Below are positions 7,487 through 25,650 of a DNA stretch of 64,000 bases, piece after piece. The position numbers were made by a program, and so were the translations under genes. This stretch comes from an uncultured Thermoanaerobaculia bacterium (lineage in GTDB: Bacteria > Acidobacteriota > JBCCFW01). Location of the stretch: positions 123,741 through 187,740 of the forward strand of contig CAZTIW010000001.1 of assembly GCA_964613915.1 (NCBI GenBank). The letters are read 5' to 3'. Every line of letters starts with the position of its first letter. The stretch's first letter is position 1. Under the pieces are notes generated by a model. The model did no database searches. It had not been told where the DNA came from and worked only from the letters and a program-made list of their open reading frames with translations.

Positions 7487-7720
7487 GGAACTCTCCGATG
7501 GGCAGGACCCGCTCCCCCGGGGGCGGCAGCCGAAGGGAGGCTACGCAAGCCCCGCCCCGGAAGCAAGGTGCGCGACGGCACGCGGAGGGCCCGAGACCGG
7601 CCCGCTCCGGGCCAGCCCCCGCCGGGGCGCTTTCGCCCGCCGGGCCCAGCCCCTACACTTGCTCTCGGGGGCATGCCCCCTGCCCCGCCCCGCGAGGCAC
7701 CGAACGACCGGAGAACCGCC

Positions 7721-9631
7721 ATGTCCACCGCTCCCGCCCGCTTGCTCCACCCCATGATTCGCGAGAACGGCGTCCTCCGCCAGGCCACCTGGGACGAGGC
7801 GCTCGACCGCGCGGCCGAGCTCATCCAGTCTTCCGTCCGCCAGCGCGGGCCGAAGTCGTTCGGCATCTTCTCGTGCAGCAAGGCGACGAACGAGATGAAC
7901 TACATGGCGATGAAGTTCATCCGGACGGCCGTCGGCTCGAACAACATCGACTCCTGCAACCGCACTTGACACGCCCCCTCGGTCGTCGGTCTGGCGACTG
8001 TTTTCGGAGCGGGTGGCGGGACGAGTTCGTACGAGGAAGCCGAGAACACGGATCTCATCTTCCTCTGGGGTAGCAACGCGCGCGAGACGCATCCCATCTT
8101 CTTCCATCACGTGCTGAAGGGCATCCGCAACGGCGCGAAGCTCATGGTGGTCGACCCGCGGCGGACGAGCTCGGCTCGCTGGGCTGACCAGTGGCTGGGC
8201 CTGAACGTCGGCACGGACATCGAGCTCGCGAACGCCATGGGCAAGGTCATCCTCGACGAGGGACTGGAGAACCGCGAGTTCATCCGGCGCGCGACGGTGG
8301 ATTTCGAGGCCTACCGCGCGCTCGTCGCTCGCCATGACCTCGAGCGCGCCGAGCGCGTGACGGGCGTGCCGGGCGACGTCATCAAGCGCGCGGCCATCGA
8401 GTACGCCCGCGCCGACCGCGCGATGATCTGCTGGACGCTCGGCATCACCGAGCACCACAACGCGGTGGACAACGTCGTGTCGCTCATCAACCTCGGGCTC
8501 CTGACCGGCCACGTCGGGCGCTACGGCAGCGGGCTCAACCCCCTGCGCGGGCAGAACAACGTGCAGGGCGGCGGCGACATGGGCGCCCTGCCCCACAAGC
8601 TCACGGGCTTCCAGGACATTGACGACGACGCGCTGCGCGGCAAGTTCGAACGCGCCTGGGGCGTGACGTTCTCGGGCGAGGTCGGCTGGCACCTGACCGA
8701 GATGTTCGAGGCGATGGAGCGCGGCGACATGACCGCGCTGTTCTGCATCGGCGAGAACCCCGCGCAGTCGGAGGCCGACTCGCACCACTGCCACGGGCTG
8801 CTGTCGGGACTCGAGTGCCTGATCGTGCAGGACATCGTCATGACCAGGACGGCCGAGATGGCCCACGTCGTCTTCCCGGCATCGGCGTCGTGGTGCGAGG
8901 CTGACGGCACGGTCACGAATTCCGAGCGCCGCGTGCAGCGCGTGCGCAAGATCCTCGAACCGCCAGGCGAAGCTCGCGACGACATCCAGATCCTGGCCGA
9001 CCTCGCGCGACGCCTCGGCCGCGACCTCGGCAACCCGACGCCGCGGCAGCTCTGGGACGAGCTGCGCACGCTCTCGCCCATGCACGCGGGCATGAGCTAC
9101 GAGCGCCTCGAGAAGCTCGGCGGCATCCAGTGGCCCTGCCCGTCCGAAGACCACCCCGGCGAGAAGTTCCTTCACGCGCGGCTCTGGAAGGACCCCATCG
9201 AGGGCCGCCGTGCCCCCTTCCTGCCCTGCGAGCAGGTGCCGCCCGTGGACCAGCTCACCGAGGACTTCCCGCTGCGGCTCACGACCGGGCGGCGGCTCGA
9301 TTCCTACAACACGGGCGTGCAGACCTCGAGCTTCGCGTCGCCCATGCGCGGCGGCGAGACGCTGGACCTGTCGCCCGAGGACGCGCGCCGGCTGGCCATC
9401 ATGGACGGCGAGATGGTGCGCGTGACCTCGCGACGCGGCTCCGTGCTGGTGCCCGCGCGCATTGACACGGGCCTGAAGCCCGGGCTCACCTTCATGACGT
9501 TCCACTTCCCCGACCAGGTGGACACCAACATCCTCACCATTGACGCGACCGACCCCAAGTCGGGCACGGCCGAGTTCAAGGCCTCGGCGATTCGCGTCGA
9601 GAAGCTCGCGGTGGACGCCGTCGCGACCTGA
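7721..9631 (+). CDS. fdhA: Formate dehydrogenase catalytic (molybdopterin/MopB) fragment, a selenoprotein with in-frame TGA at 7967-7969 read as Sec; it lacks the N-terminal 4Fe-4S domain
   Basis: Two six-frame ORFs (7568..7969 and 8111..9631) share one frame and are separated only by TGA. The context SCNRT-TGA-HAPSVVGL matches the FdhF Sec site (CARV-U-HGPSVAGL). The translation is collinear with E. coli FdhF from residue ~63 (PMIR...ATWDEAL) to the C-terminus (GQNNVQGGGDMGALP, KSGTAEFKASAIRVEKL). A GGAGA RBS sits 7 nt before the ATG at 7721. Confidence 0.85.
7982..7998 (+). promoter_or_regulatory. SECIS-like hairpin, 12 nt downstream of the Sec UGA (GUCGUC-GGUC-U-GGCGAC: 6-bp stem, GGUC loop, bulged U)
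   Basis: The sequence after the TGA (CACGCCCCCUCGGUCGUCGGUCUGGCGAC) parallels E. coli fdhF (CACGGCCCAUCGGUUGCAGGUCUGCACC), including the apical GGUC loop and bulged U. Confidence 0.5.
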
Positions 9632-9712
9632 CGCGCCGGCGCGTCGCCCGGGGGCGCGCGACCGCCGCGCGCTCCCGTCGCTCATGCCATCATCCGCACC
9701 GAAAGACCTGAC

Positions 9713-11526
<1,814 letters not shown>

Positions 11527-11530
<4 letters not shown>

Positions 11531-12639
11531 GCTCGCGATTCGTCGAGGCGCCGCGCCGCATGGTCGAGTTGAGCGTGGATGGCCACGCGGTCGCCGTGCC
11601 CGAGGGCTCGACCATCATGGACGCCTGCCGCGAGGTCGGCGTGGACACGCCGACCCTGTGCTGGGCGGCGAACCTGACGCCCATCAACGCCTGCCGCGTG
11701 TGCGTGGTCGAGCTCGAGGGCGCGCGCACGCTCGTGCCGTCCTGCGCGCGCAAGGCCGAGGCCGGCATGAAGGTGAAGAGCGACAGCGAGCGCGTGCGGA
11801 CCAGCCGCAAGCTCGTGCTCGAGCTTCTCGCCTCGTCCGTGGATGTCTCGACGGCGCCCGCCTTCCAGGGGTTCATGGAGCGCTACGGCGCCGACGCGAG
11901 CCGCTTCGGCGAGGCGCAGGCGCCCGCGGCCGCCGGCGAGCGCGACGCCGCGCATGCCGGACACCATCACGCGACCGACGGGTCGCGCGCCGCGACCGTG
12001 CATCAGCCGGTCAAGGTGGACAACGAGCTCTACGTCCGCGACTACGGCAAGTGCATCCTCTGCTACAAGTGCGTGGACGCTTGCGGCGAGGAAGCGCAGA
12101 ACACGTTCGCCATCGCGGTCGCGGGTCGCGGGTTCGACGCGCGCATCTCGACCGAGCTCAACGTCCCGCTGACCGACTCCGCCTGCGTTTACTGCGGCAA
12201 CTGCATCAACGTCTGCCCGACCGGCGCGCTGATGTTCAAGTCGGAGCACGACATGCGCGCGGCGGGCACCTGGGACGAGTCCAAGCAGACGACCGCCGAG
12301 ACGGTCTGCCCGTACTGCGGCGTGGGCTGCGTGCTGGAGCTGACGGCCCAGGACAACCGCATCGTCAAGGTCATGTCCCCCGTCGAGTCCACCGTGACGA
12401 ACGGGAACCTGTGCATCAAGGGACGCTTCGGCTTCGACTACGTTCACCATCCGCACAGGCTGACGAAGCCGCTGATCCGGCTGCCAAGTGCCAAAAAGCA
12501 CGCCAACGACCAGGTCCACCCGAAGCTGGTTGAATTGGGAATGCCCTTCAAGCCACTCTTCGGCTTCGAGCACGTGCAGCGCATGCCCGGCAAGAAGTCC
12601 CGCCGCCCCCCCAGCGACGGCGACGCACCCGTCGGCTGA
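11527..12639 (+). CDS. fdsA: Formate dehydrogenase alpha N-terminal FeS fragment (2Fe-2S ferredoxin fold, 4Fe-4S clusters and the MopB N-terminal 4Fe-4S domain), ending exactly at the MopB domain boundary and followed by a ~50-aa non-homologous lower-GC tail
   Basis: MVELSVDGHAVAVPEGSTIMDACREVGVDTPTLCWAANLTPINACRVCVVE is NuoG/FdsA-like. CILCYKCVDAC and CVYCGNCINVCP are ferredoxin clusters. ETVCPYCGVGCVLEL...NGNLCIKGRFGFDYVHHPHRLTKPLIR matches FdhF residues 1-70. The tail LPSAKKHANDQVHPKLVELG... has no homology and lower GC. Confidence 0.8.
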
Positions 12640-12868
12640 CGGTCGCGGACGGCGCCAGCCAGCCACCGAGCGCCGCACCGGGGCTGGCCCCCGGGCCGAG
12701 CCTCGAGACCCTCCCGCCAGATCCGGCCAACCGTGGCACGACGACACGGCCGGCAGTGTCGGCCCTGCCTGGCGCCGCGCACGCACCTCGACCCGGCATC
12801 CGGCGAGCCGCGGCGTTGGCATCCCCATGACCCCACGACCACCCCGGATAGGCAGCACGCCCGCCGCT

Positions 12869-13021
12869 ACCTAACGCAAGCGGCCAGACCACGCGGACGG
12901 AGCGCAAGCGGCCGCAGCTCAATGACATGGCAGGCCCACCCCCGAGCTCACCCGCCGGTGATAGGCTCCGCAACACCGCTTCACCGGCGGACTAGGCGGA
13001 ACGATCCATTACTCGTTAGAG
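12869..13021 (+). repeat. Leftmost attC-like/attI-remnant element (begins ACCTAAC, ends CTCGTTAGAG), at the boundary between fdsA-N and the first cassette
   Basis: An inverse-core-like CCTAAC at 12870, an internal inverted repeat gcaagcggcc/ggccgcagc, and a core-like GTTAGAG at 13015-13021, 11 nt before the first cassette start. Confidence 0.35.
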
Positions 13022-13031
13022 GGACACAACA

Positions 13032-13364
13032 GTGCGCCGGAGCGATGTGAGCCTCGCAGTACTCGCCGTAGTGCTCGTCCTGGTGAGCGCCGTCGGCGTG
13101 CAGTGGTTCCTGGACAGCGCGGCTGATCGACTGCAGGCCGGCGGGCCAGTCTCTCTCGGCGTCCGAGTCTACGTGGCGGCGGCGTCGCCAGCGGTTGTGG
13201 TTGCCATCGCTCTCGCGATAGCGTGCATCGCGGCGCTTGCCATGGGGCAGCACAGCGTTGCGCGGGCGCTCAGCCGCGTGGCTTGCTACGCTGCGATGAT
13301 CTGGGCGCTCGGTAGCATCGTGGTTCTTGGCCTGGCGAACAGCGCCTTGGACTGCAAGGTGTGA
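13032..13364 (+). CDS. Cassette ORF 1: small integral membrane protein (110 aa, 3 TM)
   Basis: Hydrophobic ORF from GTG 13032, immediately followed by attC1. Confidence 0.4.
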   Translation: MRRSDVSLAVLAVVLVLVSAVGVQWFLDSAADRLQAGGPVSLGVRVYVAAASPAVVVAIALAIACIAALAMGQHSVARALSRVACYAAMIWALGSIVVLGLANSALDCKV

Positions 13365-13371
13365 AGGCGCC

Positions 13372-13434
13372 ATCTAACCCGCCGTTGCAGCCGACGCCGC
13401 AAAGCCGGCGCGGCTGAACGCCCACTCGTTAGGC
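13372..13434 (+). repeat. attC site 1 (R'' ATCTAAC ... R' GTTAGGC)
   Basis: atctaacccgccgttgcagccgacgccgcaaagccggcgcggctgaacgcccactcgttaggc. Confidence 0.75.
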
Positions 13435-13450
13435 GGACAAAGGCAGTCGC

Positions 13451-13987
13451 GTGAAGCCACGCTCGAGCCCTGACCTCCAACGCGCGCTTAATGCGCTCCC
13501 GGATGCGATAGCCGACATGAAGCGGCTCGCACGGGCCATTGATCCCGTTCGCGGTGTCGTCTGCCTGAGCTCGGCCGAGGTGCGGCTTCGCCCCGAGTTG
13601 GTTTGGAACGCCTTCGTCTGTCTGCTGTCTGAGTGTGCGTACGAGGACCTCCGTCCGTCGCAGCGCCCCGCACACCTCGCGTTTTGGTATGACGCAGAAG
13701 TTCAGAACGGCGGCCACGCCCAGTACCTCACCAACCCTACCGGGCTCCGCGCTGAGGAGACCGTGCAGGCCCTCCGCGCCGTTGGCGCGGAGAGGCACGC
13801 TGCTTTGCTCGGTCGGTGCCTTGCCACGTGCAGGCCGGCAGACGGAGCGCGCCCAGCTGACTCGGACACCATCCTCGATGAACTCGACACGGAGTACCAT
13901 TCACTCCAGCCATCGCTGGTGGATATCCTGGGCCGTCATCTCGAGGCACACCGGCCGGACTTCGTAACGGTCGCGGGTGCCTCCTAA
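13451..13987 (+). CDS. Cassette ORF 2: DUF4375/DMP19-like protein (possible DNA-mimic family)
   Basis: The motif AFWYDAEVQNGGHAQYLTN resembles the conserved EVxNGGFxQY signature I recall for the DMP19 C-terminal family. Starts at GTG 13451; attC2 follows. Family assignment is from memory only. Confidence 0.45.
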   Translation: MKPRSSPDLQRALNALPDAIADMKRLARAIDPVRGVVCLSSAEVRLRPELVWNAFVCLLSECAYEDLRPSQRPAHLAFWYDAEVQNGGHAQYLTNPTGLRAEETVQALRAVGAERHAALLGRCLATCRPADGARPADSDTILDELDTEYHSLQPSLVDILGRHLEAHRPDFVTVAGAS

Positions 13988-14044
13988 CCCGGCGTTGCAG
14001 CCGACGCCGCATTCGCGGCGCGGCTGAACGCCCACTCGTTAGAC
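13982..14044 (+). repeat. attC site 2 (TCCTAAC ... GTTAGAC)
   Basis: Near-identical to attC1; differs only in the central spacer. Confidence 0.75.
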
Positions 14045-14056
14045 GGACGAGGAGCC

Positions 14057-14575
14057 GTGGACCAACAACCACCACCGCTAGGCGAACTGCTGCTTCTTCT
14101 GATGTGGCTCTCGGCCGTACCGCAGCTCAGTGTGGCTCTGATCCAGACGACGGTTTTCGCTCGACTCGGTGTCTTTCAGCGGCACCGCCGCGCGGCGCTT
14201 CTTTCCCTTGTGGGAACCTACATTGGAGCGTTGCCCCTTGGACTAGTGTTGTTCGCGCTGCTGCCGACCTCACTACTTCCCGGCAGCGTTCTTCCTGATC
14301 AGTGGCCCGCTCTACCGCCATTGTTCTTCGTGCCGGCGGTCATCGCATCGATAGTGCTCGGCGGAGCCACGACAGCGTGGGTGATCTGTCGACGCAGAGC
14401 GGTCCAACCCGGCGTTGCAACCGACGCCGCAGCCGGCGCGGGTGAGCGCCCACTCGTTAGGTCGACCAGGGACTTGACACTCCACGGCACGGGGAGTACA
14501 AATACGGTATGTGGCAGGTCTTCGAGCATCGGCGTGTGTCACGACAGCTCGGAGTTCTTCCAGTCGAGCTCCTGA
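14057..14575 (+). CDS. Cassette ORF 3: small membrane protein; the reading frame has no stop before attC3 and reads through it into the next cassette
   Basis: Hydrophobic N-terminal 110 aa; the frame then translates attC3 (AVQPGVATDAAAGAGERPLVRS) and terminates at 14575 inside the higB cassette. Confidence 0.3.
   Translation: MDQQPPPLGELLLLLMWLSAVPQLSVALIQTTVFARLGVFQRHRRAALLSLVGTYIGALPLGLVLFALLPTSLLPGSVLPDQWPALPPLFFVPAVIASIVLGGATTAWVICRRRAVQPGVATDAAAGAGERPLVRSTRDLTLHGTGSTNTVCGRSSSIGVCHDSSEFFQSSS
14402..14461 (+). repeat. attC site 3 (GTCCAAC ... GTTAGGT)
   Basis: gtccaacccggcgttgcaaccgacgccgcagccggcgcgggtgagcgcccactcgttaggt. Confidence 0.7.
14474..14502 (+). promoter_or_regulatory. Sigma70-like promoter internal to the higBA cassette (TTGACA, 17 bp spacer, TACAAA); it would give a leaderless or near-leaderless higB mRNA
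   Basis: TTGACA at 14474-14479, a 17-nt spacer, TACAAA at 14497-14502; the higB ATG is at 14509. Confidence 0.5.
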
Positions 14576-14790
14576 AGCGGTACGAGAAGTGGAAGGACAT
14601 CGTGCGGGCGTCAGGTCCCACTGGCCTGCGCTTGATCCGCGGCTTGCGTGACGAAGCCTTGTCCGGAGAGTGGAAGGGGCACCGCTCGAGTCGCCTCAAC
14701 CAGCAGTACCGCGTGATCTACAAGGTGGAAGCGAGCGAGGTCGTCGTGCTCGTCGTCGAGGTCACGGCCCACGACTACCGCAGGAGATGA
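14509..14790 (+). CDS. higB: RelE/ParE-superfamily toxin, HigB-like (toxin gene precedes antitoxin)
   Basis: The C-terminal signature WKGHRSSRLNQQYRVIYKVEASEVVVLVVEVTAHDYR is typical of RelE/HigB toxins. Confidence 0.7.
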   Translation: MWQVFEHRRVSRQLGVLPVELLKRYEKWKDIVRASGPTGLRLIRGLRDEALSGEWKGHRSSRLNQQYRVIYKVEASEVVVLVVEVTAHDYRRR

Positions 14791-14794
14791 AGAG

Positions 14795-15061
14795 ATGAAG
14801 CGATCTGGTTTTCGTCGGGCGCGCAGCCGGGTGAAGGTCACTGTCGGTGAGTCCGTGCGCATCATCCGTGAACTCCAGGAGTTGAGCCAGAATGAGCTTG
14901 CGGCCCTCACTGGAATTCCCCAGTCGACTCTCTCCGCCATCGAGCATGACCGGGTGAATCTCGGTGTCGAGCGGGCGAAGGTCATCGCGCGTGCGCTGAA
15001 GTGTCACCCGGCCGTCCTCGTGTTTCCGAACTGGGACGTCGAGAAGGAGTCCGTTGCCTGA
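14795..15061 (+). CDS. higA: HTH XRE-family antitoxin, HigA-like
   Basis: Helix-turn-helix SQNELAALTGIPQSTLSAIEHDRVNLGVERAKVIARAL; lies 4 nt after higB. Confidence 0.7.
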   Translation: MKRSGFRRARSRVKVTVGESVRIIRELQELSQNELAALTGIPQSTLSAIEHDRVNLGVERAKVIARALKCHPAVLVFPNWDVEKESVA

Positions 15062-15121
15062 CCCGGCGCTGCAGCCGCCGCCGCCGCCGAGCCGGCGCGA
15101 CTGTACGCCCACTCGTTGGAC
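15056..15121 (+). repeat. attC site 4 (ends GTTGGAC)
   Basis: cctgacccggcgctgcagccgccgccgccgccgagccggcgcgactgtacgcccactcgttggac. Confidence 0.65.
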
Positions 15122-15127
15122 GGCAGA

Positions 15128-15634
15128 ATGATCGCTGTGGCGCAGCTCCTCTTTGCAGACGCGCGCTCGCAGGACGACCTCTTGCTGGCCTTGGAGCGGC
15201 ATCTTGCTAGCGCCACATCGTTTCGCGTCAGCAGGACAGAGTGGCGAGGTTACAGCATCATCATTCCGCAAGTTCTCGTCGGCACCTCGCCAGTCGTGCT
15301 CACTCTGCAGGTCGATCGCGCTCCCGAGTACGTGCCGGCTGAGATTGCGGAACTGGCAGAGCACCTCAGCGGAAAGGCGAATGACGACGAGCTGAACGCG
15401 CTTCGGCAGTGCGATACCCGTGTGGACATCATGTCTGCCAGCTCTGCGCAGACCTCGGAAAGCGAAGACGCGATCACCGTGTTCGCGTCAAGCGATCTCG
15501 ATCCTACCGCTCCCGACGTCACGACGGTCCTCAACGAGCTGCAATCGTTCACCGGCGCGTGGGTCGTGGACAACATGGACGGTCGGATTCGAAAGCCGGG
15601 GAGCGCAGAATGGATCGTTCTGTTCGAAGCCTAG
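15128..15634 (+). CDS. Cassette ORF 5: hypothetical protein (168 aa), no recognisable domain
   Basis: ATG at 15128 immediately after the attC4 core; followed by attC5. An acidic C-terminal half is present but I recognise no motifs. Confidence 0.45.
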   Translation: MIAVAQLLFADARSQDDLLLALERHLASATSFRVSRTEWRGYSIIIPQVLVGTSPVVLTLQVDRAPEYVPAEIAELAEHLSGKANDDELNALRQCDTRVDIMSASSAQTSESEDAITVFASSDLDPTAPDVTTVLNELQSFTGAWVVDNMDGRIRKPGSAEWIVLFEA

Positions 15635-15643
15635 CAAACCTGC

Positions 15644-15747
15644 CGTCCAACTCAACGCTGCAGCAGACGCCAACCCGCGCCACGCGAGTCGTAGTTTGCT
15701 ACGCTGTCGCGTGCGGGTTGGCGCGGTTGAGCGTCAGGCCGTTAGCC
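15644..15747 (+). repeat. attC site 5 (long variant, 104 bp; CGTCCAAC ... GTTAGCC with an extended imperfect palindrome)
   Basis: cgtccaactcaacgctgcagcagacgccaacccgcgcc...gtcgcgtgcgggttggcgcggttgagcgtcaggccgttagcc; the two arms are inverted repeats. Confidence 0.6.
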
Positions 15748-15766
15748 TGACCAAGAGGCCTTGTCG

Positions 15767-16336
15767 ATGCCGGAGCAGTCACTACAGCTCGATGAGCTTG
15801 GCAGGCCGTTACTCGACCAGTTCAGTGAGTCAGGCTTCGTCGATTGCGTTTTCCGCATCGCTCACATCTCGAGTGATCCGGGACACCACCGCCTTCGGCT
15901 CGAGGCGTCGCACAACGGAATCGCGGTCGGACTCTCCGTGAGTGTTCGAAGGGGTATTCGCGGCGGGTTCAACCCGAGCATGGAACTGATCCCTGACCAT
16001 GTGTACCGCCCGGCCGTCGAGTTCCTGCGCTCAGGATCTGAGAGTGATGACCTTGTCACGGCGCTGGCACAACTCTATGGGCAGCCCGCGCGGCCATTGC
16101 AGATGGTGACCGCCATCTCATTCACCGGGATCGCGCTCCATCGGGACGACGTCGACATGGAGACAGAGCCGATCACGATCAAGCTCTTCGGCCGTGATTC
16201 CGACGACGAGATCGAGCGCGACGAGTACTTCGAGTCGTTCTTCAACATCGATCTAGCATCTGGCTTTGTCTACTGGAATGAGAAGGACCCTGACTACCGC
16301 GCTCCACTCATTCGTGGACTGTCGGTAGCAGGCTAA
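15767..16336 (+). CDS. Cassette ORF 6: hypothetical protein (189 aa), no recognisable domain
   Basis: ATG at 15767 after attC5; followed by attC6. Confidence 0.45.
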   Translation: MPEQSLQLDELGRPLLDQFSESGFVDCVFRIAHISSDPGHHRLRLEASHNGIAVGLSVSVRRGIRGGFNPSMELIPDHVYRPAVEFLRSGSESDDLVTALAQLYGQPARPLQMVTAISFTGIALHRDDVDMETEPITIKLFGRDSDDEIERDEYFESFFNIDLASGFVYWNEKDPDYRAPLIRGLSVAG

Positions 16337-16395
16337 CCCGGCGTTGCAGCCGACGCCGCCGAGCCGGCGCGGGTGAGCGCCCCATCGCCAGCCCG
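16331..16395 (+). repeat. attC site 6 with a degenerate R' core (CATCGCCAGCC instead of CTCGTTAGGC)
   Basis: ggctaacccggcgttgcagccgacgccgccgagccggcgcgggtgagcgccccatcgccagcc. Confidence 0.55.
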
Positions 16396-16421
16396 ACAAG
16401 GGCGACGATGCGGACGCACGA

Positions 16422-16739
16422 GTGAGCACGAGCGAAGGTCGTGCCCAGGGTCGGCACGTGGCGTGCGTTGGCGTCGCCGTGATCTTGGCGGCCGGTCTTC
16501 GGGTCTACTCAGGCTGCACCGCGACGTATGCAACACCCGCCATCGAGAGCGCGGGCGAACTCTCCCGTGGCGAGACGCTCCTCACCGGAGCGGGGCGCTT
16601 CACCGGGAACTGGCACCTCGCCGTCGTGGCGGTTCTCTTGAGCTCTGCGCTCGTAGCGGCGCTCCTGACCGGCCGACGCGCAGGGTGCGCGGCGCCTGGA
16701 CCCAGCGTTGGCCCCGACGCGCAAGTGCGCCTTGGATGA
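16422..16739 (+). CDS. Cassette ORF 7a: small hypothetical protein with a lipoprotein-like N-terminus
   Basis: The GTG start and a hydrophobic stretch followed by YSGC are the only support. Confidence 0.25.
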   Translation: MSTSEGRAQGRHVACVGVAVILAAGLRVYSGCTATYATPAIESAGELSRGETLLTGAGRFTGNWHLAVVAVLLSSALVAALLTGRRAGCAAPGPSVGPDAQVRLG

Positions 16740-16977
16740 GCGCCATCTCGCGAGACCGAGACCGGCCAATCGGAGTGGCGTAGACTCTCCCGGCGAATGT
16801 CCGCGATGTCACCCGCAGGCTCGAATCCGACGGCTGGGCCAAGCCCGCCAGCGCGGATCCCATCGGCAGTTCAAGCACGCGGAGAAGCCGGGCCTCGTGA
16901 CCGTGCCGGGGAAGCCGAATGACGAGCTGGCGCCTGGCACGCTGAACAGTGTTCTCAAGCAGGCGGGGTTGAAGTGA
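16708..16977 (+). CDS. hicA: HicA-family mRNA-interferase toxin (C-terminal HicA domain; start site uncertain)
   Basis: The C-terminus GSHRQFKHAEKPGLVTVPGKPNDELAPGTLNSVLKQAGLK matches the HicA consensus (GSHxxFKHP...TVPxHxxKxLxxGTLxxILKQAGL). No canonical start lies near the expected N-terminus; the only ATG is 30 codons upstream. Confidence 0.5.
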   Translation: MAPTRKCALDERHLARPRPANRSGVDSPGECPRCHPQARIRRLGQARQRGSHRQFKHAEKPGLVTVPGKPNDELAPGTLNSVLKQAGLK

Positions 16978-17189
16978 TGAAGCTGCTCATTGTTGTCGAA
17001 CAGACACGAACCGGGTTTTCCGCCTACTCGCCCGATCTCCCTGGCTGCGTCGCAACGGGCGCGACGCGTGAGGAAGTCGAGCGCGAGATGAAGGAAGCGA
17101 TCGACTTCCACATCGAGGGGATGAGGGCAGACGGCGAAGCAGTGCCCGAGCCGTCGTCGTATTCGACCTGCGTCGAGGTTCCGGCCTAA
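16974..17189 (+). CDS. hicB: HicB-family antitoxin
   Basis: FSAYSPDLPGCVATGATREEVEREMKEAIDFHIE matches the HicB RNase-H-like fold consensus; 4-nt overlap with hicA. Confidence 0.65.
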   Translation: MMKLLIVVEQTRTGFSAYSPDLPGCVATGATREEVEREMKEAIDFHIEGMRADGEAVPEPSSYSTCVEVPA

Positions 17190-17246
17190 CCCGGCGCTGC
17201 AGCTGCCGCCACCGACCCGGTGCGGCAGCACGCCCGGTCGTTAGCC
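17184..17246 (+). repeat. attC site 7 (GCCTAAC ... GTTAGCC)
   Basis: gcctaacccggcgctgcagctgccgccaccgacccggtgcggcagcacgcccggtcgttagcc. Confidence 0.7.
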
Positions 17247-17262
17247 CGCCGGAGAGAAACAC

Positions 17263-17943
17263 GTGGCCAGGTCGCGGATCTACCTGCTTCCAGGGCTCGA
17301 TGGCACGGGCCAGCTCTTTGATCGCTTTCTCGCAGTCGCGCCGCCTGCGTTCGATTGCACGGCCATCACCTTGCCTTCGGGGCGGCTCACATGGGACGAG
17401 CTCGCGACTGCCGTCGCACCGAAGCTCTCGCCGGGCTCCGTGATCGTTGCCGAGTCGTTCTCCGGGCCGCTGGCTGTCGTCCTTGCGAACCGTCTACGAC
17501 CGGCCGGCCTCGTCTTCTGCAACAGTTTCGTCGTCCCGCCAAGAGCGCAGGCCCTTCGGTGGCTCCCGTGGGCGGCTCTTGGCCGGCTTCCGGTTCCGCG
17601 CCCGTTGCTGCGCCACTACCTGGTGGGGCCAGACGCGGACCGTGCGCTCGTGGACGACGTGGCGGCGGTGGTGGGTCGCCTCCCCGCCGAGCTGTTCGCC
17701 TGGCGTGTCAGAGCCGTGCTGACCGCCAACGTTGCCGAGATGTTCGGTCGCTGCGCCACGCCCGTGCAGTACCTCAGGGGCACCGAAGACCGGCTAGTGC
17801 CGGAAACGGCGTGGCAGCACATGGCAGCGCTGCGACAGATGGAAACGATCCGTGTTCTCGGGCCTCACCTCCTGCTACAAGCAAGCCCGGCCGAGTCATG
17901 GCAGGCGATCGAGCGATTCGCGAGATCGTTGCCAGCGGTCTGA
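17263..17943 (+). CDS. Cassette ORF 8: alpha/beta-hydrolase fold protein (esterase/lipase-like)
   Basis: Nucleophile elbow AESFSG after a beta-strand (VIVAESFSGPLAVVLA); 226 aa; GTG start at 17263 right after the attC7 core. Confidence 0.55.
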   Translation: MARSRIYLLPGLDGTGQLFDRFLAVAPPAFDCTAITLPSGRLTWDELATAVAPKLSPGSVIVAESFSGPLAVVLANRLRPAGLVFCNSFVVPPRAQALRWLPWAALGRLPVPRPLLRHYLVGPDADRALVDDVAAVVGRLPAELFAWRVRAVLTANVAEMFGRCATPVQYLRGTEDRLVPETAWQHMAALRQMETIRVLGPHLLLQASPAESWQAIERFARSLPAV

Positions 17944-17957
17944 CCAGCGATTGCGGC

Positions 17958-18010
17958 CCGCCGCGGCGGTTGCCCCGGCATCATGCGGGCAACAAACCGC
18001 CGTGGCGGGA
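17958..18010. terminator. Long imperfect GC-rich hairpin between the convergent cassette 8 and ankyrin genes (bidirectional terminator or degenerate terminal attC)
   Basis: cccgccgcggcggttgcccc ... gggcaacaaaccgccgtggcggg are inverted repeats with one bulge. Confidence 0.35.
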
Positions 18011-18031
18011 CCGCGGCACACCGGGCCACGC

Positions 18032-23161: not shown

Positions 23162-24034
23162 TCATCCGGACAGGCCCATCTGCTGCCACGGAATCCACCT
23201 GAACACCAGGGCGACGACGATCGCGGCGACGAAGCCGACCAGTCCGCCGGTCGGCGTCATGGCGGGCGGCGGCTCCTTCTCTCGCGACCGGGCCGTGAGA
23301 AAGGCGGCCACTGCCGTCAAGGCCGCCGGAGCGCAAAGCCAGGCAATGGAGCCGCCCCGGGGAGCAAGGAGGACGTGCACCGCCACGCTGCCCGCCCACG
23401 TCACGACTACCGTCGCGAGCCAGCAGGAGATCACGTGACCGCCCGCCAGGCGACGACGCCCACCCAGGAGACCCACGGCGGGTGCGAGCACGAACGCCAG
23501 GCTCGCCACCCGGAGCCACAAGAGATCCGCCACGTGCTCCGTTCCGAGGTGTGAGGGCGTGCCCGGAGGGAACGTGCCTCGCAGCCCGCTCGCGAGCTCT
23601 CTCACGCTCCAGGACGTGATGTCCATCGGATGAACGCCCAACCTCGCGGGATCGCCGCTCAACGCGGCCGACAGCTCACTGCCTGCGCGGCTCGCCCAAG
23701 GGCCCAGCACCCACTCAAGCGTGAACTGCGCGAGGATCATGAGGCCCAGGAGACCCAAGCGCTGACCCAATCGTGGACGTGCGATCACGAATCCGAAGAC
23801 GAGGAGAAACGAGATCGCCGGGAGCTCCAGCGCCATCGCCCGCGAGATCCCGCAGAGCGCGACGAGAGCCGCGAGGCCCGCGCTCCGCTCGCCATGACCC
23901 AGCCCCTCGATCACCCCTCGCACCTCGAACACGCACGAGAGCGTCACGAGCCCCGCCGCCACGCCCAGGGGCAGCGCCCTGTCGGCGATCACGCGCCTGG
24001 CTGCGGACAGGGCAGAGCTCACTCGCAGATGCAC
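23162..24034 (-). CDS. Polytopic integral membrane protein (about 7 TM), function unknown
   Basis: Hydropathy only. Confidence 0.4.
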   Translation of the reverse strand: MHLRVSSALSAARRVIADRALPLGVAAGLVTLSCVFEVRGVIEGLGHGERSAGLAALVALCGISRAMALELPAISFLLVFGFVIARPRLGQRLGLLGLMILAQFTLEWVLGPWASRAGSELSAALSGDPARLGVHPMDITSWSVRELASGLRGTFPPGTPSHLGTEHVADLLWLRVASLAFVLAPAVGLLGGRRRLAGGHVISCWLATVVVTWAGSVAVHVLLAPRGGSIAWLCAPAALTAVAAFLTARSREKEPPPAMTPTGGLVGFVAAIVVALVFRWIPWQQMGLSG

Positions 24035-24741
24035 GTGTAGGGCGTGCCTTCTCTACAACTCGTCGGTCCGTTCTGGCCTTGAGGACACGAGGAGAAGGAC
24101 TGACATGCGAAAGTACCCCATCGCACGGGGCACAGCTGGGGGAGCGCCCTCCGCGTTGGAGGAAAGCTCGGCGTGCACAAGCAGAAGCTCCACGACTTGG
24201 TGCAACCCAGTCCGCTCGATGGACAGGATGCGCACACTTCGATCCCGACGGGCTGGCACGGTGCGCCTCCGATGGCGCCGGGATTGACGATCTCGCCCCC
24301 TGAACCGATGGTCCCCGGCGGGACACTCGAGAGAACTGTCCACTTCACTTCGCCGGAGGAGTCCCTGTACGTGAGGAGCTCGGAAGGATAGACGTCACTC
24401 AATGCGTGGACGATGACGGATCCGGGCGGATGATCGGCCAGTGTCGACGCGTAGTAGCCGTAGTAGTCCTCGCTGGATTGAATCTCGTAGCGAAGCGTGT
24501 GGACTTCTCCGGTGGGGTATCGCACGAGCGCCAGATCCCAGATGTAGCCCAACACTCCCGTGGACGCATCGAGAGAGACGCGAGCTCCCACGAGATCCGA
24601 CACTTCGTAGAGGGCCCATGCACTTCCGACCGGAAGCGACGCGAAGGGCGGCAGCGGATCCGGAGCTACCTGCGCCTGAAGCACCGATGGAGAGAAGGTG
24701 GCGACCACGCCGATTGCGGTGACGACCACGAGCCTCCGCAC
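24019..24741 (-). CDS. Secreted Cys-rich hypothetical protein (signal VRRLVVVTAIGVVATFSPSVLQAQ); the ORF extends to 24867 but the signal peptide suggests the GTG at 24741
   Basis: N-region/H-region/AQA-like cleavage motif; the C-terminal 80 aa contain 14 Cys. Confidence 0.4.
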   Translation of the reverse strand: MRRLVVVTAIGVVATFSPSVLQAQVAPDPLPPFASLPVGSAWALYEVSDLVGARVSLDASTGVLGYIWDLALVRYPTGEVHTLRYEIQSSEDYYGYYASTLADHPPGSVIVHALSDVYPSELLTYRDSSGEVKWTVLSSVPPGTIGSGGEIVNPGAIGGAPCQPVGIEVCASCPSSGLGCTKSWSFCLCTPSFPPTRRALPQLCPVRWGTFACQSFSSCPQGQNGPTSCREGTPYTCICE

Positions 24742-24800
24742 GCGTTCGATGAGCGGCCTGACCCGGGCAGAATTAGTAGCAGCAGGTTCTGCGCGGTAAA

Positions 24801-24821
24801 GAGAGAGAGTGGGGGGGGGGG
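24801..24821. repeat. (GA)4.5 dinucleotide repeat followed by a G11 homopolymer in the upstream region of the secreted Cys-rich gene
   Basis: gagagagag at 24801-24809 and eleven G at 24811-24821. Confidence 0.8.
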
Positions 24822-25650
24822 CGCAAGACCATGGTTCTCCTCCGTTGCCGACAAGGATCGGCTTCACTGGTGCCGCTGTCGCAGGGCGACGTGCCCTCCA
24901 GCACGCGACACGAAACGAGGATACGCCTCGTCAGCGCGCGCAAGCAAGTAGCCTCCCGTCCGCCCGCGCGCCCGTCTCACGTCGCGCGTTGACGGCGCTC
25001 CTCGGGACGCGTGCCGGGAGGCTGGCAAGGACCGCGCGACACGCACGACGCCTCGCGGCCAGGGGCGGCCAGTCACCCGCGACCGTACACGGGCGATTCG
25101 AGCGCCCTCCCTTCCCGAGCAGCGACTCGCCGTCGCGCTAACGAGCCGACGGATCGCACAGTCCCGAACGCCGGTCACGCGTGAGTGACTGGCGGGCGGC
25201 GGGGGCACGCGCGCTTCTCTGGCGAGGCGGAGCGCGCCGCGAACGCGCGTCCAGCGACGCTCGGAGCCCCGTCCTAGCGCACGCCTACCGGACGCGGTCC
25301 TCGTCTCCCCCACATCCCGACCCTCTCCCCCGGTTCTCTCTCGCTCGACCGCGCCAGCGGCAGACCGCGAGCCGGCAGGGCGATGCCCGCGAGGATCCTC
25401 GGACTGGCCCGGGATCCGTCACGGCTGCGGTGGTTCGCGTCCGCCCCGCACAACGCGGACGCTCCAGCACGTCCACTGCAAGCGTCTGCATCAGCAGGTC
25501 CACCCACGCGATCCGCGCCGAGCGCTGGCTCGCCGCTGCTGGCAAGCCACCGCGGGGCGCCGCGCCGGCGGGCCCTCCTCCACGCCGACGCGTGCGGATG
25601 GAGGCTCGGGCTCGTGCGGCGGGGACGACCCGGGCGGGCGCGCGAACACG

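Follow-up and report, generated by a model that had tools for sequence, protein, structure and literature searches.

What is a run of small, low-GC genes, separated by similar short elements, doing directly behind a formate dehydrogenase (FDH) operon in an uncultured bacterium? We addressed this question in a stretch of 64,000 nucleotides (nt) of contig CAZTIW010000001.1, hereafter the window; array coordinates are window positions and all the elements of the array lie on the + strand. The small genes occupy about 4.3 kb (12.95-17.25 kb), 0.4 kb downstream of the co-oriented FDH operon, and nine attC-like elements (a0 to a7, with a6b) bound eight cassettes (c1 to c8) arranged head to tail. In integrons, the tyrosine recombinase IntI joins the folded bottom strand of the attC site of a circular cassette to attI or to another attC. 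A sequence-only reading of this DNA had proposed an array of eight cassettes without an integrase, and the core motifs, the folds, the covariance models, the context of the same attC family elsewhere and the absence of IntI from the window all support that proposal. We conclude with high confidence that the array is a CALIN, the name given by Cury et al. (2016, PMC4889954) to clustered attC sites without an integron integrase, and that it represents the remains or a detached piece of a chromosomal integron cassette array: well over the minimum of two attC sites are clustered here, with no integron integrase nearby.

The elements start with a RYYYAAC-like motif (R'') and finish with a GTTRRRY-like motif (R'), and a small + strand open reading frame (ORF) stands directly 5' of each. 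They were found where the sequence-only reading had placed them, after small + strand ORFs between 13.0 and 17.3 kb, and with the R''-to-R' polarity that it had described, on the + strand and co-oriented with the ORFs. Their length is 61-66 nt, except for a5 (103 nt). Six of them (a1, a2, a3, a4, a6 and a7) form one attC family with pairwise identities of 70-87%, a5 is a long divergent site, and a0 and a6b are badly decayed remnants; to call the sites near-identical, as had been done, overstates their likeness. The six sites supported by the models below, together with a5, lie within 3.9 kb at a spacing of 0.4-1.3 kb, and at two sites of the array the stop codon of the preceding ORF falls inside R'' (in c2, a TAA within R'' of a2).

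These motifs are concentrated in the array. The sequence CTAAC occurs six times in the 64 kb, five of them within 12.8-17.3 kb, and all six occurrences of GTTAG fall in the same interval. Allowing up to three mismatches, a 20-nt core of the family matched six times in the window, always on the + strand and inside the array, against 1.57 matches expected by chance, and none of 100 shuffled sequences reached six matches. The elements are therefore not a dispersed REP family as far as the window is concerned, which the sequence-only reading had named as the outcome that would undo it. The array also differs in composition from its surroundings, as that reading had noted: its GC-content is 0.644 against 0.717 in the rest of the window, and at third codon positions (GC3) the cassette ORFs have 0.69-0.78, whereas most of the clearly coding flanking genes lie at 0.83-0.93.

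We evaluated the elements with two covariance models built in this analysis: R1, from the six best window copies, and R2, exclusively from seven attC sites of class 1 integrons, which themselves show six compensatory pairs. R1 scored the six window copies at 71.8-89 bits, with 18.6 bits for the best match elsewhere in the window, and at E <= 0.006 it recovered seven attC sites that genuinely belong to class 1 integrons. Conversely, the top six correct-strand matches of R2 in the 64 kb were the six window sites (52.5, 43.7, 24.2, 17.5, 17.5 and 16.4 bits; background from 15.6 bits). The expectation that an attC covariance model would score these elements was thus confirmed with both models. A search of the whole window with Rfam at gathering thresholds gave no match, and Rfam appears to contain no matching attC family.

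The relation to class 1 integrons was also visible at the level of primary sequence. The best-preserved site, a2, matched 2,587 plasmid records; in class 1 integrons, the attC sites that follow aadA1, aadB and a small DUF1010 cassette share 78-83% identity with it. Three of these plasmid matches were examined: one lies directly after aadA1, one between ant(2'')-Ia (aadB) and catB8 beside intI1, and one closes, at its 3' end, a small cassette that stands between intI1 and blaGES-5. The orientation relative to the ORFs was the same as in the window in all three.

We then compared the bottom-strand fold energies of the elements to those of shuffled sequences (expressed as z). By this measure, a1, a2, a5 and a7 form more stable folds than their shuffles (z = -2.6 to -5.1), and a3, a4, a6 and a6b do not. 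The minimum-energy folds of a2 and a7 present a 5-bp R box (CTAAC/GTTAG) closing an imperfect stem; in a2, two single-base bulges on the 3' arm, a T and a C, are separated by a 6-bp stem. In position and spacing, this arrangement agrees with the published rules for attC sites, in which extrahelical bases face the AAC triplet, the distal one being a conserved T, and a 6-bp stem is required to separate the first base from the last one (PMC5027507). Lengths of attC sites range from 57 to 141 bp (Nivina et al., PMC5027507).

To place the family, we searched other genomes and metagenomes with a degenerate 24-nt pattern; the loci and contigs found by sequence search are designated by L numbers. The pattern retrieved 10 loci in species-representative genomes and 49 metagenome loci. 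The former belong to Acidobacteriota, Gemmataceae, other Planctomycetota, Anaerolineae, Thermoflexales, Alkalilimnicola, Marinobacter and one contig binned as Candidatus Hadarchaeum. R1 identified 98 family members in 58 of these loci, on a single strand in each multi-copy locus and spaced by about 0.4-1.1 kb. Across these 98 members, compensatory changes were observed in 13 of the 18 stem pairs, with 108 compensatory cells against 24.8 +/- 3.6 in shuffles (none of 500 shuffles was as high). Pairing was in register in 94.6% of the cells, against 20-49% when the partners were slid, although the alignment was fitted to the model, which favors the structure and somewhat inflates this figure. The 5-bp R box is conserved in sequence and shows no covariation. 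Fixed R boxes combined with a stem that is conserved as structure alone are the signature of attC sites.

The same family adjoins integron integrases elsewhere. Five of the loci that carry it (L004/L060, L029/L047 and L052) encode integrases that share 52-58% of their residues with IntI1 and reach 438-500 bits on NCBIfam TIGR02249 (cut-off 265). The integrase gene is divergent from the cassettes in L004/L060 and lies upstream of them in the same orientation in L029/L047/L052. Together, the cores, the fold, the position and the reciprocal models indicate that the window elements are attC sites, whose recombination is predicted.

Two cassettes were found in other genomes in a context that bears on their mobility. 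Positions 6273-7001 of L067 correspond to 14406-15131 of the window at 76.8% DNA identity, a block that contains the relE-HTH pair of c4 and extends from a3 to a4; the toxin and the antitoxin have proteins in L067 that are 81% and 83% identical, respectively, and the other cassette proteins of the window have no match there. A block of homology bounded by attC sites is what a mobile cassette would be predicted to leave. In addition, a homologue of the c6 protein (52% identical) is located between two VCR-type repeats in a 13-14-copy array of the Vibrio harveyi group. The c6 family (homologues P0121-P0240) comprises 171 members, mostly of about 185 aa and lacking any Pfam domain, from Vibrio, Desulfobotulus, Pirellula and many metagenomes. 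Its AlphaFold2 model is a confident, mostly-beta prediction (pLDDT 91.3), with no convincing solved relative. A homologue that is 76% identical to c6 (P0133, in L071) was considered as a further array cassette and discarded, as no array is recognizable at that locus.

No integrase was found in the window, in agreement with the sequence-only reading. A Pfam scan of about 50 plausible ORFs across the window revealed no tyrosine recombinase family and no Phage_integrase match, and tblastn searches of the window with IntI1 and four environmental IntI proteins gave nothing better than E = 0.1, the matches being scattered. This covers 12.6 kb to the left and 46 kb to the right of the array. One weak tblastn match recurred in the gap between the FDH operon and c1 (12640-13031), at 12766-12843, where THLDPASGEPRRWH was aligned with the IntI-specific THSTDPRSGVVRRHH. 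This stretch scored 1.9 bits on a profile of four IntI sequences and at least 15 equal-sized tiles of the window scored higher; we rejected it as noise. No complete integron (intI with an adjacent attI and Pc) was found in the window.

Several observations weigh against this assignment. R2 is clearly significant for a1-a3 only, a4, a6 and a7 being just above background and a0, a5 and a6b undetected; moreover, its training sites were first picked with R1, which introduces a bias toward aadA-like sites. The bulge at L'' is a C in 96 of the 98 family members, and the central spacer counts 5 nt on the 5' arm and 2 nt on the 3' arm; in described sites the extrahelical base at L'' is usually a G and the central spacer leaves about 5-6 nt unpaired in each arm (PMC5027507). 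The same study found that no single extrahelical base is essential, C not being among the bases tested (PMC5027507). The T bulge is conserved in 84 of the 98 members. The shortening of the spacer comes from three extra pairs that covary (GC to CG) in the family and are unpaired in the class 1 sites examined. The six window copies, which are too alike, show no compensatory changes among themselves. Furthermore, no attI, Pc promoter or integrase remnant marks the origin of an integron at this locus, and the term integrase-less holds locally, for a 64-kb window of a larger contig. To our knowledge, attI cannot be recognized by its sequence. No sigma-70-like promoter was found with a scan whose consensus is ill-suited to this organism.

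The features of the array and of its immediate surroundings are listed in Table 1.

Table 1. Features of the cassette array and neighboring genes (window positions; R1 and R2 in bits; z, bottom-strand fold energy relative to shuffles).
Feature	Position	Strand	Details
FDH operon	7718-12639	+	Alpha subunit naturally split and permuted
FDH catalytic molybdopterin part	7718-9631	+	In-frame TGA at 7967-7969
FDH NuoE/F fusion	9713-11530	+
FDH N-terminal Fe-S/Fe4S4 part	11527-12639	+	Separate gene
a0, decayed attC remnant, left end of array	12947-13020	+	R'' lost (CTCAC); 3' half ends ...ACTCGTTAGAG
c1 ORF, 110 aa, hydrophobic	13032-13364	+	ORF list
attC a1	13372-13434	+	R'' ATCTAAC, R' GTTAGGC; R1 87.9; R2 43.7 (E = 3.7e-11); z = -2.65
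c2 ORF, 178 aa, DMP19-like	13451-13987	+	Pfam PF14300 DMP19, E = 9.2e-20
attC a2, best-preserved	13982-14044	+	R'' TCCTAAC, R' GTTAGAC; R1 89; R2 52.5 (E = 5.6e-14); z = -4.95
c3 ORF, ~116 aa up to attC, hydrophobic	14057-14404	+	ORF list
attC a3	14402-14462	+	R'' GTCCAAC, R' GTTAGGT; R1 80.8; R2 24.2 (E = 6.8e-5); two stem mismatches; z = 0.18
c4 gene 1, RelE/StbE-family toxin, 93 aa	14509-14790	+	NCBIfam TIGR02385, 36 bits (cut-off 27.9); weak Pfam matches HigB, YafQ, YoeB
c4 gene 2, HTH (Xre-type) antitoxin, 88 aa	14795-15061	+	Pfam HTH_3, E = 1.1e-13
attC a4, partly decayed	15056-15121	+	R'' GCCTGAC (AAC to GAC), R' GTTGGAC; R1 74.3; R2 16.4 (marginal); z = -0.55
c5 ORF, 168 aa	15128-15634	+	ORF list; 168 aa also called in L068
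attC a5, 103 nt, divergent	15645-15747	+	R'' GTCCAAC, R' GTTAGCC; z = -5.1
c6 ORF, 189 aa, conserved protein	15767-16336	+
attC a6	16331-16392	+	R'' GGCTAAC, R' decayed to GCCAGCC; R1 79; R2 17.5; z = 0.33
c7 ORF, 105 aa	16422-16739	+	ORF list; GC3 0.75
a6b, strongly decayed attC remnant	16697-16760	+	No R boxes; 51-63% identical to family members; R1 13.7 (noise level); z = -0.38
c8 gene 1, hicA toxin pseudogene	16786-16977	+	Frameshifted near 16830-16850; no evident start codon
c8 gene 2, HicB antitoxin, 71 aa	16974-17189	+	Pfam HicB_lk_antitox PF15919, E = 2.1e-11
attC a7, last recognizable site	17184-17246	+	R'' GCCTAAC, R' GTTAGCC; R1 71.8; R2 17.5; z = -4.53, R box paired
Alpha/beta-hydrolase-like ORF, 226 aa	17263-17943	+	Weak Hydrolase_4 match only; GC3 0.77, GC 0.676
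Strong hairpin between convergent hydrolase and ankyrin/BRCT genes	17952-18012		15-nt arms, 93% complementary; z = -3.1 and -3.8 on the two strands

The less typical elements were assigned on different grounds. The ends of a5 resemble the family (repeat families D2 and D4; 66-79% identity), the family models give it only 16.4 bits, and its assignment to attC rests on its cores, its fold and its position between two ORFs. In the remnant a0, which is 57-65% identical to the family, the 5' part and the 3' part can both be aligned with it; a0 contains a 10-bp perfect hairpin (12952-12990), and neither R1 nor R2 detected it on the correct strand. As for a6b, its alignment and position suggest a former attC site.

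Both edges that had been drawn for the array require revision. The left edge had been set at 12869 (ACCTAAC), but the 165 nt from this ACCTAAC to a GTTAGAG (12862-13026) form no more stable fold than their shuffles do (z = -0.1); a further attC remnant suspected at 12810-12880 was also discarded, as it presents no structure. The right edge at 17960 takes in the hydrolase-like ORF, which begins 17 nt past the R' of a7 and has a cassette-like composition. Neither R1 nor R2 detected an attC downstream of this ORF, and it could be either the last cassette, with a decayed attC, or the first flanking gene. The hairpin that follows contains no R''/R' cores and was matched by R1 on the wrong strand only (12.3 bits); it is either a terminator-like structure or a fully decayed attC. 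In a consensus scan, which is uninformative in a GC-rich genome, terminator-like sites in the window were at chance level.

The cargo is mostly devoid of recognizable domains. The ORFs of c1, c3, c5 and c7 had no Pfam, NCBIfam or PADLOC match, and c7 may not be a real gene. The c1 ORF is present as well in the independent contig L012. PADLOC produced only generic HTH matches across the cargo and no known defense system, which leaves the suggested defense cargo without support, and the NCBIfam search of the cargo added only RelE. Two type II toxin-antitoxin (TA) modules, both co-oriented with the cassettes, were recognized as the sequence-only reading had indicated: a RelE toxin with its adjacent HTH antitoxin, and a HicB antitoxin with a HicA toxin that is recognizable but frameshifted. 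The in-frame hicA ORF covers positions 16-58 only of the HicA_toxin profile (62 bits), and joining the N-terminal part from the other frame extends the match to 2-58 (78 bits), suggesting that the hicA-hicB module is probably defective.

This frameshift is one of several signs of decay. The AAC and GTT triplets are both kept in a1, a2, a3, a5 and a7, and a0 is devoid of R boxes. In contrast, a6 has lost the GTT cleavage triplet of its R' and a6b has no R boxes, so that c6, c7 and c8 now form one fused block. In addition, the c3 frame continues through a3 to 14575, into the next cassette, where it overlaps the start of relE, because R'' is CCAAC rather than CTAAC at this site and supplies no TAA. 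The damage to a6, a6b, a0, a4 and hicA shows that the array is partly decayed and looks neglected.

The surroundings of the array are informative about its insertion and about the integrity of the assembly. In the FDH operon, the catalytic part precedes the NuoE/F fusion and the N-terminal Fe-S part, and its in-frame TGA, at the active-site position of the motif NIDSCNRT-*-HAPSVVGL, probably encodes selenocysteine. In the relatives L011 and L013-L015 the genes follow one another in this order and the gene call is likewise split at the TGA; relatives with the conserved order include a Kofleriaceae metagenome-assembled genome (MAG). Homologues of the Fe-S subunit stand alone as proteins of about 300-330 aa, have these Fe-S domains as well and end just past KGRFGFE(F/H)V(H/Q). 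With stand-alone homologues of this size and a conserved gene order in relatives, we rejected the idea that fdsA was truncated by the array. The sequence-only reading had also seen fdsA-N as occupying the place of intI and attI, but it is a normal stand-alone Fe-S subunit and nothing displaced an integrase there.

Both the Fe-S subunit (69-76% identity) and the class I fumarase (77-78%) have named relatives that come mostly from Kofleriaceae, Byssovorax, Labilithrix, Polyangium and other Myxococcota, and the host was accordingly taken to be an uncultured myxobacterium that no named organism closely resembles. Behind the FDH operon of the Kofleriaceae relative come Uma2, rpsB, tsf, pyrH and frr, without an array, and the window is not syntenic with it downstream. 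The array therefore does lie just behind the FDH genes as had been stated, but its insertion cannot be delimited by comparison with this relative, the nearest one whose context could be used. A tRNA scan of the window found no tRNA gene, and hence no tRNA-linked island.

Two short, independently assembled contigs of the same sequencing run (L012 and L068, run SRR12901013) reproduce the junction from FDH to a1 and the cassettes c3-c6 at 99.7-100% identity, which argues against a chimeric join. L012, otherwise 99.7-100% identical, lacks a 132-bp (44-aa) insert present in the window at 12447-12578, near the 3' end of the Fe-S subunit gene and between direct repeats (12416-12446 and 12548-12578). 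The insert encodes DYVHHPHRLTKPLIR..., which we take to resemble the stretch found after the Fe4S4 domain when FdsA-type proteins are unsplit. Possible origins are a polymorphism in the population, recombination with a paralogue that left a scar, or a difference between the assemblies. A second dip in GC-content concerns 23162-24930 (- strand) and the low-GC kilobase 24001-25000 (GC 0.641); two ORFs of about 300 aa there have no Pfam match. This region may be another piece of foreign DNA, and neither R1 nor R2 lists a match in 24001-25000.

How did the array come to be there? We propose that the cassettes were captured singly by IntI into an ancestral integron, whose integrase would later have been lost or split off by rearrangement; alternatively, the first cassette may have been seeded at a secondary site. 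The array would now be decaying. The five sites with both triplets would presumably still recombine if IntI were supplied in trans, which would free c2 and c3 singly but c6-c8 only as the fused block. Lacking promoters, the cassettes would depend for any expression on transcription that reads through from the co-oriented FDH operon; the consensus scan, which is weak evidence, detected no terminator-like site in the 0.4-kb gap between the two. The TA modules presumably have their own promoters and may help to retain the array. It is known that TA modules stabilize chromosomal cassette arrays.

Alternatively, the array could be a detached part of a complete integron of the same genome that is serviced in trans by a distant IntI, encoded beyond the 12.6 kb on the left or the 46 kb on the right, or else on another replicon. 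For about half of the CALINs the genome does encode an IntI, and arrays can be split by rearrangement (PMC4889954). Here, four of the five sites with intact triplets fold well and the window covers 64 kb of a larger contig. Nevertheless, the accumulated signs of neglect (a6, a6b, a0, a4, hicA and the read-through of c3) speak against it, and no fragment of IntI was found in the window. We consider this scenario possible, but less likely than the loss of servicing.

It is also possible, although we find it doubtful, that the array never had an integrase or an attI of its own, and that an IntI acting in trans seeded a cassette at a GTT-containing 'attG' site behind the FDH operon, from which the array grew by attC x attC recombination. 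Integrase-mediated insertion of cassettes outside att sites has been reported (bioRxiv 10.1101/2022.09.11.507474), and integration at secondary sites is one of the origins listed for CALINs (Cury et al. 2016, PMC4889954). The left side of the array would fit such an origin, as it presents no attI-like site or intI remnant and its leftmost element, a0, looks attC-like rather than attI-like. However, a0 is a decayed attC that comes after about 300 bp of non-coding DNA, so that the left junction is eroded and uninformative, and there is no relative with an empty site, the Kofleriaceae relative being non-syntenic downstream.

An error of metagenome assembly that joined the array of another organism to the FDH operon is very improbable. 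The composition does change abruptly, attC repeats are known to break or confuse assemblies, and the supporting contigs terminate in or near such repeats, L012 inside a1 and L068 near a2 at its start and in a6 at its other end. Yet L012 spans the FDH genes, the 0.4-kb gap and c1 into a1 at 99.7-100% identity, the right side of the array runs unbroken into high-GC genes, and a lower GC-content is expected of cassettes. Finally, the view that the repeats are ordinary intergenic hairpins (REP-like or intrinsic terminators) with a chance likeness to attC in GC-rich DNA has in its favor the GC-rich imperfect palindromes after ORFs and the shuffle-like folds of a3, a4, a6 and a6b, but it is effectively refuted by the single orientation of the elements and their lack of copies elsewhere in the 64 kb, the 78-83% identity to the aadA1/aadB attC, the reciprocal detection by the models, the integron integrases beside the family elsewhere, the bulges and 6-bp spacing that fit the attC rules, and terminator-like sites at chance level only.

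The reading as a CALIN leaves the question of what the attC family itself represents. We tentatively suggest that the window sites belong to a distinct and widespread attC subfamily (C bulge, short spacer), a sister of the aadA/aadB/catB type, that takes part in a cassette pool shared across Myxococcota, Planctomycetota, Acidobacteriota, Chloroflexota and Gammaproteobacteria. If this is true, the 'Xanthomonadales' attC clade would be an environmental, cross-phylum pool and not a taxonomic marker, and soil and sediment myxobacteria would be part of the reservoir in which such cassettes circulate. The family connects environmental arrays, from five phyla or more, with the type of attC site that aadA and aadB cassettes, dominant in the clinic, carry; it thereby bears on the origin of the recombination sites of resistance cassettes and on whether attC types track taxonomy or environment. 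The cargo adds to this interest with the conserved family of c6, which has a confident predicted fold but no solved relative and occurs in a Vibrio cassette as well.

Some loci of the search deserve a separate mention. Three sites (L004 3104-3167, L050 73-136 and L065 1920-1983) share 90-95% identity with the aadA1 and catB8 attC sites of class 1 integrons and have the canonical G bulge. They share arrays with members of the C-bulge family, in L004 (a complete integron of an Alkalilimnicola MAG) and in the metagenome contigs L050 and L065, where the G-bulge site stands immediately upstream of an AbrB/MazF-like TA cassette. This co-occurrence suggests that the two subfamilies share integrases and cassette pools across phyla.

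Other loci raise questions of binning. The contig binned as Candidatus Hadarchaeum, an archaeon, is short (L010, 646 bp, NZ_JBMFOX010000132.1) and the family attC on it reaches 57 bits with R1; this may reflect faulty binning, or it could be relevant to integrons in Archaea, which have been reported (PMC9668308). In two MAGs of one study, assigned to Gemmataceae and Phycisphaerales, the best attC sites (L002 899-965 and L009 3350-3416) are equal in R1 score (86.4 bits), length and GC-content, and further matches of R1 and R2 are equal in score at one constant coordinate offset. This agreement suggests recent sharing or cross-binning.

We finally compared the array to known systems. Sedentary integrons such as the Vibrio superintegron are likewise chromosomal, with relatively homogeneous attC sites, interspersed TA modules and mostly unknown cassettes, but they hold tens to hundreds of attC sites, whereas the array of the window has 8-9 and lacks an integrase and attI; its two TA modules, moreover, both point the same way as the cassettes. 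The criteria of Cury et al. (2016) for a sedentary integron are more than 19 attC sites or presence in all genomes of a species; the window contains nine attC-like elements at most. The sequence-only reading had favored a sedentary chromosomal integron. The fairly homogeneous attC sites agree with that view, but the array is small and decaying, and both the attC family and the relE-HTH cassette are found in arrays of unrelated phyla. The integrons of L004/L060 (Alkalilimnicola MAG) and of L029/L047/L052 (metagenomes) are closer counterparts, with the same attC family (49-85 bits with R1) and one-strand cassettes of similar size; they encode IntI and the window does not.

The attC sites of the aadA1/aadA2/aadB/catB8 type have been described as 'Xanthomonadales-type', 99.4% of them in Xanthomonadales chromosomes (Ghaly et al. 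2021, PMC8352920), in a study that could not separate taxonomic from environmental grouping (PMC8352920). The window sites share with this type a length of about 60-66 nt, the R boxes, a near-identical central stem (GCCGCGCCGC...GCGGCGTCGGC), a T bulge at the same place with the second bulge 6 bp away and an overall identity of 78-83%; they differ from it by a C for the G in L'', a shorter spacer and a higher GC-content. Unlike class 1 cassettes, those of the window carry no resistance genes, and the hosts of the family are Myxococcota and other non-Xanthomonadales phyla.

Within Myxococcota, IntegronFinder 2 found no cassette arrays in the Myxococcaceae genomes of one study (PMC13616975), and a Myxococcota MAG with an integron integrase has been reported (PMC12772301). 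Integron elements are known in this phylum but appear to be rare in cultured Myxococcaceae. The window thus presents a cassette array in an uncultured lineage with myxobacterial relatives, in a phylum where arrays are seldom seen.

The closest match is to the CALINs themselves. Cury et al. counted 279 of them in complete genomes, 95% without an intI pseudogene within 10 kb and half in genomes without IntI (PMC4889954), and IntegronFinder 2 extended the catalogue to 2,961 CALINs of about six attC sites each (PMC9024848). The array of the window likewise consists of at least two co-oriented attC sites with no intI or recognizable intI pseudogene, is chromosomal and carries mostly unknown cargo. 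It is near the average size, and nothing essential sets it apart, although several of its sites are visibly decayed. CALINs have been proposed to be degraded integrons, and the decay in progress seen here, with R boxes lost, an ORF that reads through its attC and a toxin gene that is frameshifted, fits that proposal. In kind, the array is ordinary: one more CALIN among the thousands catalogued.

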